Shown here: piece by piece, positions 14,846 to 61,914 of the stretch
How the letters are laid out: every line of letters begins with the position of its first letter
How positions within the stretch are numbered: position 1 is the stretch's first letter
NCBI GenBank assembly: GCA_964016885.1
Contig: OZ024763.1
Span: forward strand, 30,318,001-30,382,000
Origin: Eledone cirrhosa
Taxonomy: Eukaryota
Length of the DNA: 64,000 nt
Direction of reading: 5' to 3'
Notes under the pieces: model-generated
The model's database searches: none
Told to the model about the DNA's origin: nothing
What the model saw: only the letters and a program-made list of their open reading frames with translations
Translations under genes and position numbers: made by a program

Positions 14846-15130
14846 CCGAATTAGTGTAGTATAGAAGAGTACATATGTTGTTGAGGTGTATCATTTTATC
14901 AATACTCTGATATGCCCAGTTCCTGGTTGCGTTGTTATTTCACTGAGGAACTGGAATCATATCTGAGTAACCAAACCAACCTGCGCACTTCGTCGAGTGC
15001 TCCAATCTGCATACTGAGGTGTTGGTATACAACCAACATATACTCAAAATATATACATATATATATATATATATATATATATACACACTAAGCAAACATA
15101 GAGTAAAAAGAAGATATATATATATTAGTA

Positions 15131-15357
15131 TAATCCTTTAGCATTTACATTGCTCTATATTTACTATTATATTTTCATGGTAAAGGCTTTATCTCACATA
15201 ATTATCTCACATAATATCGAATCTATGAGATTTTAAAAGTATTTATTTTAAGAACAATACCTTAACATCAGTTTGAGCGACCGGATACAGCTGGTTTCAA
15301 CAGAAGGAGGTAGAGAATTCCGGCTGGTTTTGGCCGGTTTGAACATTAAAGGGTTAA
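15131..15357. mobile_element. piggyBac-like MITE (second copy)
   Basis: Colinear with 5939-6163; ends gaacattaaagggTTAA. Confidence 0.65.
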
Positions 15358-15381
15358 AGCTTAATATAGTAGAAAGGGGGA

Positions 15382-15415
15382 TTCGACATTTCGGATATTA
15401 GTCCTTCATCAGAAA
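15382..15415 (-). ncRNA. Minimal hammerhead ribozyme (family A-like)
   Basis: Minus strand: ttt-CTGATGA-aggactaatatcc-GAAA-tg-TC-gaa. Confidence 0.7.
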
Positions 15416-16067
15416 ATATGACAAATGAGAAAAAGAGACATAGACTTGAGTAACAAACAGAATGAAACAGAATATATATATTCGGAGAGATAACACGTGT
15501 TTAGAGAATTAGATGTGGACAACAGAAAACGTGGATAATTCCCTCTAGCTTCAGATAACTACTAAACATACACACACACACATATATATATGTGTATATA
15601 TATATATATATACACACACACAAACACATACAGACACGCACAAGCACATATATACATAAATGTGCATATGTGCATATATATGTGTATATATATATATATA
15701 TATATATATATATATATATATATATATATATATGTGTGTGTGTGTCCAGCTATATATACATCTTTGTGTGTGTATATACATATATACACATACATACATG
15801 TATATGTATATATATATATATATATATATATATATATATATATATATATATATATATATATATATATAAATTTATATATATTTATATATATCATCAATCA
15901 TCATTTTACGTCCACTTTTCCCTGCTTGCAAGGGTGGGACGGAAACTGATTCTGGCTTGATTTCTACAGCTGGATGCCCTTCCTAACACCAACCTCATTT
16001 ACAGTGAGTGCTGGGTGCTTTTTTGCCGTGGCACCTGCGTGTTTTGCAGTGGAATGATATATATATA

Positions 16068-16295
16068 TATTAAAATAACAGATTAAAGTTTAAGCAAAGA
16101 ATCGCTGCTTTCACCCTTAACGGGATCTTCTGTTTCAGAAGTTTCAGAAGATCCCGTTTAAGGGTGAAAGCAGCGATTCTTTGCCTAAACTTTAATCTGT
16201 TATTTTAATAAATATTTGCTCTACGGTTCTTATATATTTGATATATATTTATCCTTATCGAGCCCTCTTTGGATTTTAGTCTTCAAATTTATTAT
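16068..16295 (+). mobile_element. Fold-back PLE-like element with degenerate hammerhead
   Basis: Near-perfect inverted arms 16068-16132 / 16145-16210; CAGAAGA-tccc...gggt-GAAA in the right arm; AATAAA and a unique tail follow; flanked by (TA)n. Confidence 0.6.
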
Positions 16296-16299
16296 TATT

Positions 16300-59271: not shown

Positions 59272-59810
59272 GGGAGACATGATATGGAGGTTAAAAAACA
59301 CTTGTGAATAGTGCAGTTTTAAATCAGCAAAAAAGCACCCAGCCCACACTGTAAAGCAGACGTGTAGGCGCCACGGAAAAAAAAAAAGCACCCAGCACTC
59401 ACTGTAAAGACAATGACACACGACCGTGACTTCTGGCGTCACACAGTAATACAGAGTACCCGACCTCCCATGGGTACATGCTGAAGCATATAAACAATAT
59501 GCCCCCACACACCCCACCGCAAGGTGGTCGTGGAGGTGCCACGGCAAAAAAGCACCCAGCCCACACTGTAAAGTGGACGTGTAGGCGCCACGAAAAAGCA
59601 CCCAGCACTCACTGTAAATGAGGTTGGTGTTAGGAAGGGCATCCAGCTGTAGAAATCAAGCCAGATCAGTTCCTGTATGAGCAAGGCATGGTCAGCCGAC
59701 CAGACACTGCACACAACAGGACAACCCGTCTAACCCATGCTAGCGTGGAAGAACGGACGTAAAACGGTGATGATGATGATGATTATATATATATATATAT
59801 ATATATATAT

Positions 59811-60080
59811 ATAGTTATGTAATAAACAACATAAGGCAATTATTCCATTTACCAGTGGTTTCTTAAAAGAAAAAAATTTTGCTTTCAATCATCAGAATGA
59901 AAAAATCCTAGGCACCAGGATTTTTTCATTCTGATGATTGAAAGCAAAATTTTTTGCTTTTAAGAAACCACTGGTAAATGGAATAAATGCCTTATGTTGT
60001 TTATTACATAACTATTAAGCTCTGTTACCTACATAGAGCACTCTTTTTTCCTGGACTTTTCCGACGGAATTACTTCATTC
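59811..60080 (+). mobile_element. Fold-back element with two intact divergent hammerheads
   Basis: Arms 59811-59909 / 59917-60015 with a 7-nt loop; HHRs at 59843-59902 (-) and 59924-59983 (+): tttcatt-CTGATGA-ttgaaagcaaa-attt-tttgcttttaa-GAAA-ccactgg-TA-aatggaa; tail with taGAGCAC. Confidence 0.88.
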
Positions 60081-60680
60081 ATATATATACATATATATAT
60101 ATATAAATAAACTCATTGCTAGAACAGCCATTAAAACAACTAAATGCTGTCAAAGACGGTGATGGGCAAAAATACCTCAGAGGACCAGATTGACCAGTGA
60201 CCAGTGGTCAATAGAGAGACAATACTGGTAGCATTCAGGATATATTGTTAAACTGTGATGTAACATACCTGAAACCCCAAGGTGAGAAACTGGAATGTAC
60301 GTACCTGAAATTAAGATGAAAAAATAATAATTAAACAATCATTTACAAATACAATCTATACAAAATATACATAGTTATATATATACACATACATATATAC
60401 ATACATGTTCTAGTGGTAGCAGAGAGAAACAATCGACAACTGTTTCAGGGTTATTGCCCTTTGTCAAGATTGTGTATGCCTCCTTTTTCTGCTACCCACT
60501 TTTTGAGACTTATCAGTCATTTAGTATATATCTCACAAGGCTTATATATATATATATATATATATATATATATATATGTAAACTTTTATATATATATATA
60601 TACATACACATACATATACGTGTTTTGCAACAGGTCATTTTGTGGCTCAATGAAAAATTAATAAATTAAACAATCAGAGC

Positions 60681-61160
60681 TATATATCATAAAACATGCC
60701 TATAGAGTCACAAGATAAAATATATACTATTTCCTCTCCCAATTAGCATAATTAACTATATAAAAAATCGAATAGACCAGGTTATAAGAATGAGGCTTCT
60801 ATGAAGGAATCTCCGACAAATAACCGAAACCAGCCCTTCGCGTCGGCCGTAGCGGAATATTTATCGAATATTTCGACAGCGTAATCGCCTAGATACAGTC
60901 AACTAAACAGAATTAGGTTTAAAATAAACTAGGAGAAAATAGAATACATTTAAATACCTCTACCATGGTTTCATCCGTGTTTTGAGTTTTCCAATAATTA
61001 TGTAATAATTATATAAACTCGAGCGCCGGATTCTTCAGGAAGCTCGCTCATATCTAGACATTAAATTTTCCAAAGCGATCGCGCCAAGAATTCAGTTCAA
61101 AATGGCTAAAAATCGTATATATTTTATCTTGTGACTCTATAGACATGTTTTATGATATAT
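60681..61160 (-). mobile_element. About 480-bp element with about 45-bp terminal inverted repeats and an internal hammerhead
   Basis: tatatcataaaacatgcctatagagtcacaagataaaatatatac / gtatatattttatcttgtgactctatagacatgttttatgatata. Confidence 0.7.
60956..61043 (-). ncRNA. Type I hammerhead ribozyme with extended helix II
   Basis: Minus strand: gcttc-CTGAAGA-atccg...gagttt...aaactc...cggat-GAAA-ccatgg-TA-gaggt. Confidence 0.87.
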
Positions 61161-61197
61161 ATATATATATATATATAATGCTAGTAGAAAATCAAGG

Positions 61198-61282
61198 GGT
61201 CCGACGAGCCGCAGATTACAGGGTCGGGTAAGATCGATACAGATCAAACCTTGAGCTGATCAGTGGCGAAACGTGCGTCACC
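61198..61282 (+). ncRNA. Hammerhead ribozyme, U4C core variant, extended helix II
   Basis: ggt-CCGACGA-gccgcagattacagggt...accttgagctgatcagtggc-GAAA-cgtgcg-TC-acc; AATAAA at 61287 and tcGAGTGC at 61388. Confidence 0.78.
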
Positions 61283-61914
61283 AACCAATAAACGTAATGA
61301 AGGAGTAACCAATCGTCCTTGTTATCTTTTCACTATACTACACTCTGTCTAGCTCTACACCTCCACACTGATGTGAATCTAAACATCGAGTGCTCACCCG
61401 GGTGAACCTACAGTAACTCCAAATTACACTCCCTGGATATATATATATATATTCCTAAATGATGATGTATGTGTGTATATGTGTGTGTGTAATTTATTTA
61501 CAAATCCAGGGCATGTTTTTAATATTTTGTTTCTAACTTCTAACAAAAATTTTGCTTTTAATTAGATTTTTTTAAGTATTTCGTAAAATTTAGGAATAAA
61601 ATAAAATAAAATATAAACAACAAAATCCACTTTAATTGGTGTATATATAATTATCTACTTAATATATGTAAGTAAACACATAAACATATAGTGTCAAGTT
61701 CAGAGTATATATATATATGTGAGTGTGTGTGTATATATATATATATATATATATGTATGTATATATATATATATATATATATATATATATATATATATAT
61801 GTATATATATATATATATATATATATATATATATATATATATATATGTATATATATATAAATATATATATGTATGTATATATATATATATATATATATAT
61901 ATATATATTATGTA

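Follow-up and report, generated by a model that had tools for sequence, protein, structure and literature searches.

A duplicated hairpin apparently marks both insertion ends of Hydra-clade Penelope-like elements

We analyzed a 64,000-base stretch of the Eledone cirrhosa genome (contig OZ024763.1, positions 30,318,001 to 30,382,000; hereafter the window), in which short insertions of Penelope-like elements (PLEs) carry a small bulged hairpin as the first element of their one-sided tails. This hairpin is a real, conserved, and apparently undescribed cis-acting feature of Hydra-clade PLEs, duplicated in the element and marking both insertion ends. A first-pass annotation of the window had noted a short word, T(C/A/T)GAGT(G/A)C, in the tails of unrelated hammerhead ribozyme families, and had suggested a cis-signal for the partner reverse transcriptase (RT) or endonuclease. 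That suggestion survives in altered form: both 3'-end classes carry a mark, not just in the window but at independent Hydra-clade loci too, and it is a duplicated structured hairpin instead of a linear word.

The window is animal DNA rich in microsatellites, and 25,578 of its bases were masked as repeats; its short interspersed nuclear elements (SINEs) may be of a cephalopod type. Many short (TA)n inserts lie between these repeats, in the order inverted copy, direct copy, and one-sided tail, often with type I hammerheads; this order is the known PLE layout (PMC8557442, PMC3846280; here and below, papers are cited for those parts of their text that were available). Among 21 local inverted pairs, we classed 14 as TA-flanked fold-backs; the arm terminates at the hairpin in 12 of these, which represent 8 of 10 families, the exceptions being the fold-backs at 43903 and 58476. 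A hammerhead lies near the 3' end in families A, B, C, D, G, J, and L, and by eye in E and F; its CUGANGA core was not found in the checked stretches of families H, I, and K or in the retained part of M. The combination of (TA)n target and canonical hammerhead is that of the Hydra clade, and helix III of families F, G, and L is similar to rows of File S2, whereas that of families A to D is different (TRYRYA).

The word noted in the first-pass annotation is the 3' strand of a hairpin of the form RCTC-stem-loop-stem-TH-GAGY-RC, in which GAGT and ACTC form the lower stem, a second stem lies inside, and a 2-nucleotide (nt) bulge separates the two stems on the 3' side. All 15 listed sites are present at their positions, and 12 of them are such 3' strands; the site at 14995 (family D) is ambiguous, with its sole partner 91 nt upstream, and relaxing the descriptor still gave no partner strand for the GAGTGAG sites at 58784 and 62843. 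The list was incomplete, as further sites occur at 16260, 21662-21693(-), 22716(-), 31136, 31823(-), 60648(-), 61964(-), and 63388(-), and in total 12 window families carry the hairpin. Contrary to the earlier description, the motif is not unpaired, since GAGT pairs with an upstream ACTC, and the last base of GAGT varies: the change from GAGT to GAGC in families G, H, L, and M is paralleled by a change from ACTC to GCTC. Loops span 2-61 nt, and G-U pairs occur.

The linear word THGAGTRC occurs 18 times in the window versus 10.2 +/- 3.1 in shuffles, of which 1 in 100 reached 18. Counted once per family, by our own family assignment, it is left with 8 families and 4 strays (6967, 32144, 36584, and 54500), a total of 12 that is within chance; the bare word therefore shows no enrichment after de-replication, the outcome that the first-pass annotation had named as telling against it, whereas position and structure are far from chance. 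In unmasked DNA, the hairpin descriptor gave 21 matches versus 2.3 +/- 1.5 in shuffles (maximum 6 in 100), counting repeated copies and using a descriptor composed after the sites had been seen. Over the whole window it gave 22 matches, namely 17 element tails, the ambiguous site at 14995, and 4 strays; family H was found with a 2-bp upper stem and family M by a covariance model. We seeded that model from 7 hairpins of equal length because MAFFT alignments A1 and A2 left the 5' strand unaligned. In the window it recovered families E, I, and M at E < 0.01 beside seed G, with F, B, L, and A weaker, and it missed families C, H, J, and K.

The hairpin coincides with the places where insertions end. 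We examined 20 sites in the window, 8 of which lack a well-aligned inverted partner; at 11 of the other 12, the tail-less inverted arm ends between -5 and +1 nt from the first base of the hairpin, and the twelfth partner is interrupted by another insertion. Both parts of the PLE layout, an inverted 5'-truncated copy and a one-sided tail, are found here. The earlier placement of the motif 50-200 nt downstream of the hammerhead was roughly right, the distances from the cleavage site being 43, 46, 60, 74, 77, 83, 109, and 313 nt. By the rule of the first AT run, tailed copies in the window end +42 to +68 nt after GAGY, although a position closer to +30 may apply to family L.

Ends are bimodal in F1 and F2, the largest two of the external families, where short ends lie at -9 to -2 from the hairpin and long ends at +40 to +43 after GAGC. 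In F1, 35 of 51 ends are short (-9 to -3) and 11 of 51 long (+41 to +43), and in F2 13 of 17 are short and 3 of 17 long, the remaining ends being contig ends or odd copies. All 24 divergent (head-to-head) pairs combine one short and one long end, with the caveat that the short class in such pairs could mask a decayed tail. In some pairs, including those at 21341 and 29478 in the window, the long copy is little more than tail. The mapped ends fall in TA or TAT of the element, resembling the target.

The long ends are matched by a second copy of the hairpin. Each of four intact 5' untranslated regions (UTRs), in loci L085, L091, L141, and L142 (the last two chosen by protein match), contains two hairpins, HP1 and HP2, both downstream of the hammerhead and upstream of the next unit's ATG. 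The GAGC of HP1 is followed by HP2 after 46-47 nt, and HP2 by the ATG after 26-46 nt, which places HP2 just past where long ends fall; L143 and L246 are truncated inside the open reading frame (ORF) and give no information on the UTR. In the L142 family, HP2 begins at +47 and all three tailed copies end at +43; the inverted copy in L164 stops 6 nt short of HP1. The L213 family has four short ends, each at a distance of 6 nt from HP1, and four more copies share one tail end. On contig G001:C3, the start of an ORF is preceded by the last 18 nt of the L213-family tail, then 5 nt, and then a hairpin, whereas the opposite arm holds the L213-family ORF end, the hammerhead, and half of HP1. In these two families, both end classes therefore lie 4-7 nt 5' of a hairpin copy (short ends 6 nt, long ends 4-7 nt), so that the tail equals HP1 plus spacer. 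We infer an HP2 for the window families, whose stubs carry HP1 only. A count of a tandem-hairpin pattern was set aside, as 2 of its 4 matches were chance strings and the control also gave 4.

To survey other genomes, we scanned metagenomes with a hammerhead-only pattern, in which the hairpin played no part in selection, and obtained at least 120 loci with 128 hammerhead copies. Among the matches listed, the strict hairpin was present within 200 nt in 9 of 26 families, compared with 1 of 26 upstream, and the 3' word matched 40 times among the 128 copies versus 1 of 92 in upstream and 0 of 75 in far-downstream controls. The lower stem was present in 15 of 16 distinct 3'-word matches in this set, and the upper stem pairs at 38 of 45 positions versus 26.6 by permutation (maximum 37 in 20,000), a score lowered by two mis-assigned rows. 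In the model-aligned matches, 4 of 7 pairs change on both sides and 21 cells do so versus 4.9 in shuffles, a count that leans toward the covariance model to which its alignment was fitted. The bulge is TT in 16 of 26 distinct hairpins and the outer pair is G-C (GAGC) in 18 of 26, with further variation to A-U and U-A. A protein-first set gave 26 C-terminus-like matches, 8 without a hammerhead in reach; of the remaining 18, the hairpin is reached by 6, whereas 7 terminate earlier, in TA, and another 5 comprise a half hairpin, a variant, and three unclear cases. Loci chosen by hammerhead alone carry the hairpin, with its compensatory changes, downstream of Hydra-clade PLE ORFs, and the protein-first set agrees. 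Viral contigs gave no match by pattern or by protein, and genome contigs gave none by protein.

The external ORFs have Hydra-clade features, namely the RWK, DKT, CxCX5C, CxxC, and CxH motifs and a C-terminal endonuclease (L141/P0002), with section 11 of PMC8557442 as the reference. By protein motifs, 94 full-length homologues include 91 with RW[KR], 94 with DK[TS], and 82 with CxCX5C, and CxCX5C is present in 5 of 6 locus ORFs. Pfam named GIY-YIG in 1 of 9 ORFs (E 0.0005) and little else; an RVT_1 match in L052 belongs to a flanking LINE (long interspersed nuclear element). Published consensi carry the hairpin as well: by eye, 3 of the 6 Hydra-clade consensi in File S7 of PMC8557442 have a clear copy. 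Those of Hydra-2_Amil and Hydra-2_Ajap end with it, that of Hydra-1_Ajap begins with two copies before the ATG, and that of Hydra-1_Crog has variants at both ends. A search of the supplement for six 3'-strand words, in which line breaks hid matches, gave 25, of which 4 lie in Hydra hairpins and 21 in Naiad and Chlamys files, where no hairpin was seen by eye.

Locus L141 (G002:C355, positions 1-2535) is one full Hydra unit of 2394 nt with a 141-nt terminal overlap, a collapsed tandem or a circle, and many of the 120 listed homologues are on contigs of 2.3-2.9 kb, about unit length. Assemblies G001, G002, G003, and G005, filed as bacterial metagenome-assembled genomes, carry numerous Hydra PLE copies of animal type, with 45 matches to the ORF in G001; these are probably host DNA contamination. 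Locus L041 contains two tandem hammerheads 144 nt apart (positions 176-352), retrozyme-like and without a hairpin.

Several observations weigh against a Hydra-clade hairpin that defines both ends. The window inserts are short stubs in which no Hydra ORF remnant was found (best TBLASTN E 0.29), so their membership of the clade rests on the target, the hammerhead type, and the hairpin itself; likewise, no window copy extends beyond the long end. The match between long end and HP2 comes from two families, and in one of these it depends on 18 nt of overlap; in L091 and L141, the upper stem of HP2 is weak. On folding, the minimum free energy (MFE) had a z-score below -2 in 1 of 14 cases, several MFE structures lacked the hairpin, and the hairpin alone is weak; such folding was uninformative. 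Among the matches listed, the strict motif is missing from 17 of 26 metagenome families, of which 5 stop in TA short of where it would lie, a few have variant forms, and about 8 are unexplained, and most external loci come from few related hosts. Hydra-1_Obim, the sole published octopus Hydra consensus, has no such hairpin by eye, and Hydra-1_Amil has a partial one.

Our proposal for how the hairpin acts draws on these sequence comparisons. We consider it reasonably probable that an RT docks at each hairpin and starts about 5 nt upstream of it, the tail being HP1 plus spacer. The hairpin would be an RNA handle for the RT-endonuclease of the element; the bound enzyme would prime from a nicked (TA)n target end, and copying would begin about 5 nt 5' of the held hairpin, which would never itself be copied. 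The earlier proposal of the motif as an internal priming site would need revision accordingly in one respect, as the hairpin lies just 3' of the inferred start site. HP1 would serve one target end and HP2 the other, and the outcome would be a fold-back whose one-sided tail consists of HP1 and the spacer, as in the window. Both hairpins would lie downstream of the ORF only on read-through (tandem) or circular RNA. The two hairpin copies probably account for the one-sided tail of Hydra-clade PLEs, long a puzzle. We see roughly even chances for a more specific version, structure-set twin priming, in which the two docking hairpins hold a pair of RT active sites at a spacing of about 65 nt, and each site primes one side of the break.

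The main rival places the recognition in DNA: the GIY-YIG endonuclease would recognize hairpins in a single-stranded cDNA or extrachromosomal intermediate and nick the TA just upstream, so that ends arise by resolution and not by RT initiation. The mapped ends in TA or TAT of the element, like the target, fit such resolution; PMC8557442 ascribes the tail to endonuclease resolution, and PMC11167929 cites the D. virilis tail as required for endonuclease recognition. We nevertheless judge this unlikely, since loops of 2-61 nt and G-U type pairs suit an RNA better than a fixed double-stranded DNA site, and the tail of a related PLE is bounded in vitro by RT start sites on RNA (PMC11167929). Another reading leaves the ends to nearby AU-rich sequence and gives the hairpins a role in translation, packaging, or internal promotion, for example ribosome loading on hammerhead-cut or circular RNA. 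The position of HP2, 26-46 nt before the ATG in all four intact UTRs, would agree with it, as would the internal promoters described in PLE pseudo-long terminal repeats (pLTRs; PMC8557442, PMC6765202). Because it explains neither why each end is followed, 4-7 nt on, by a copy of the hairpin nor why short and long ends pair so strictly, we regard it as improbable, more so than resolution in DNA.

The hairpin also resembles part of a transfer RNA (tRNA), and the motif could be a captured D-arm or RNA polymerase III A-box, or could mimic a tRNA for some host factor to read. Like the D-arm, it has a GCTC/GAGC stem followed by RC, and the pattern GCTC..THGAGCRCT also fetches many 19-20-nt strings of the form GCTCAGTTGGTAGAGCACT, which we take to be tRNA D-arms. 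It differs in having an upper stem and a 2-nt bulge, TT in 16 of 26, where the D-arm has a D-loop with its GG; the outer pair varies to A-U and U-A, other tRNA parts are absent, the 5 UTRs checked contain no B-box, the window contains no tRNA, and Rfam gave no such match. Capture or mimicry seems to us very improbable, and a shared origin with the D-arm could be compatible with docking of an RT. The least credible reading, which we scarcely entertain, makes the motif a 5' splice donor for an intron in the pLTR, an idea that the first-pass annotation had also raised. GAGT does contain GT in most window families, and D. virilis Penelope has a 5' UTR intron (PMC4209133, PMC8557442). However, an invariant GT in a GTRAG context was not found, and the covariation itself leads us to reject a donor: the outer pair is G-C, giving GAGC without GT, in 18 of 26 distinct hairpins, and this change is compensated by GCTC on the 5' strand. 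The D. virilis intron, moreover, ends at the hammerhead, upstream of the motif position (PMC4209133), and in the intact UTRs the ATG directly follows HP2, so that splicing is not needed to reach it.

The closest known system for docking of an RT at paired hairpins is the PLE Poseidon_Ac, which begins reverse transcription at two sites inside the RNA, both corresponding to genomic ends, needs RNA 3' of the start sites (to +172, with one start at +111-118), nicks both target strands, and is predicted to form a dimer (Frangieh et al. 2024, PMC11167929). It shares with the present families two 3' ends, a tail equal to the sequence between them, an AT-rich target, and the required RNA 3' of the start. 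Its initiation takes place in an AC-rich stem-loop inside the ORF and its tail is 30-40 nt, whereas in the present families the tail is in the 5' UTR, measures about 60-140 nt, and has both ends abutting copies of one conserved hairpin; the available text of the in vitro study maps the two starts and identifies no conserved recognition motif. Shared with Hydra-clade PLEs (Craig et al. 2021, PMC8557442) are the (TA)n target, canonical hammerhead, short unit, and RWK/DKT/CxCX5C protein. In the main text of that paper, as available, "hairpin" and "stem-loop" have 0 occurrences, and no link between the motif and the ends was found. The ribozymes upstream of the motif and the inverted pairs are likewise those of known PLE hammerheads; published work on these (PMC4209133) concerns the ribozyme only, and the downstream hairpin is a separate element. 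Searches of the accessible literature did not show the hairpin, nor was it found in the available parts of PMC8557442, PMC7229834, PMC6765202, PMC3846280, or bioRxiv 10.64898/2026.07.22.740005. Rfam gave 5 matches for 5 UTR loci, all far below gathering, and 442 for the window, of which the 150 listed are microRNA-type or low-complexity noise below gathering.

Beyond PLEs, the hairpin would belong to the type of stem-loop that an RT recognizes. Small structured RNA handles position a reverse transcriptase in LINE 3' stem-loops (eel UnaL2), the R2 3' UTR, and hepatitis B virus epsilon; these handles are part of the region that is copied or act as template for the primer, whereas the present one is 3' of the start site and duplicated.

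The individual hairpins in the window are as follows. Family A (ACTC-CAGT/ACTG-TA-GAGT-GC) has four copies on the + strand: 19380..19406, the first part of the tail of the fold-back insert 19157-19461; 21447..21473, where the tailed copy begins just a few nt upstream; 29482..29508, where the insert is tail only; and 37303..37329, displaced by a SINE-like insert at 37158-37290, which sits in the 5' strand of the hairpin with about 18 nt of flank duplicated. Its type I hammerheads are at 19270..19324 (+), with a palindromic helix III, and 37039..37093 (+). A 28-bp AT-rich tandem array at 19750-21250 prolongs an antisense family A copy and may belong to the 3' UTR of that element. Family B has its hairpin at 44212..44233 (+; ACTC-CAA/TTG-TC-GAGT-GC) and a type I hammerhead in the tail-less arm at 44064..44113 (-); family C has the corresponding features at 44629..44656 (-; ACTC-TGG/CTG-TA-GAGT-GC, with wobble pairs) and 44793..44843 (+). 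In family D, the 3' word (14904..15000, +) is in a tail-like position with an ambiguous 5' partner, and the tail-less arm has a type I hammerhead at 14796..14840 (-). Within 14850-15048, the sequence upstream of the family D hammerhead is similar to the tail end, and the motif is overlapped by another long ACTC/GAGT hairpin, which contains a T-T mismatch; this may be a short unit resembling a retrozyme.

Family E (ACTC-TACT/AGTA-TT-GAGT-AC) is represented at 38353..38378 (+) and 53074..53099 (+), and by copies missing from the earlier list at 31818..31843 (-) and 22711..22736 (-), along with an E-like hairpin with a TC bulge at 31116..31141 (+), also missing from that list. A copy at 63383..63390 (-) retains only the 3' half of the hairpin and the tail, a decayed E-like hairpin at 26637..26662 (+) has GAG changed to AAG, and one with its loop deleted at 32137..32150 (-) accounts for the stray + strand match at 32144. 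Family F is at 29644..29664 (-; ACTC-TGC/GTA-TT-GAGT-AC). Family G (60019..60041, +; GCTC-TGT/ACA-TA-GAGC-AC), in the insert 59814-60080, has a compensatory G-C outer pair, and type I hammerheads lie in its tailed arm (59931..59976, +) and tail-less arm (59850..59895, -). Family I, at 46033..46056 (+; ACTC-TAAG/CTTA-TT-GAGT-GC), has retained neither arm nor hammerhead, and family J, at 61342..61393 (+; ACTC-TGT/ACA-TC-GAGT-GC), has a hammerhead-like motif with the core variant CCGACGA at 61201..61279 (+). Four families are additions to the earlier list: H at 16218..16265 (+), with GCTC/GAGC, a long loop, and the 2-bp upper stem; K at 61959..62041 (-; ACTC-TGTAT/ATACA-TT-GAGT), with a 61-nt loop; L at 60643..60680 (-; GCTC-TGA/TCA-TT-GAGC), at the arm end of the insert 60619-61154, with a type I hammerhead at 60961..61038 (-); and M at 21662..21693 (-; GCTC-TGG/CCA-TG-GAGC-GC), with a TG bulge and a covariance-model E of 0.0006. 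The tails of A, B, E, F, G, I, and K often have another stem-loop, not conserved, that closes immediately upstream of the long end.

No hairpin was found in the hammerhead or tailed families at 4551/29847, 44317, 41870/43903, and 58476, and several other copies end too short to judge; the hairpin is thus clade-restricted among the PLE-like families of the window. The sequences at 4551-4647, 29847-29965, and 44317-44440 are hammerhead families of GAAACG type, probably another PLE clade, and the two copies at 4551/29847 end in (CA)n. At 41870-41996 and 43845-43997 lies a TA-inserted fold-back family with a one-sided tail and neither hammerhead nor hairpin; three words gave 0 matches for the 43903 family as Naiad. 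A short inverted repeat at 50793-50853 presumably represents something like a DNA-transposon end, and coding remnants at 26233-26612 and 55413-56496 are, we assume, LINE-like.

PLEs are the closest relatives of telomerase RT, and a conserved, covarying, duplicated hairpin at a fixed distance from each end bears on their choice of internal start sites and on the origin of their tails and inverted copies. It makes exact mutational predictions on this point, serves as a marker for annotating Hydra-clade stubs without ORFs, and, as a pair, gives a reason for active copies to need tandem or circular RNA. If structure-set twin priming is true, it would by itself produce the fold-back and its one-sided tail and would make the process depend on templates that are tandem or circular. 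The hairpin would then be a portable handle that sets the internal start site of an RT, and other PLE clades may likewise use clade-specific hairpin pairs of their own.

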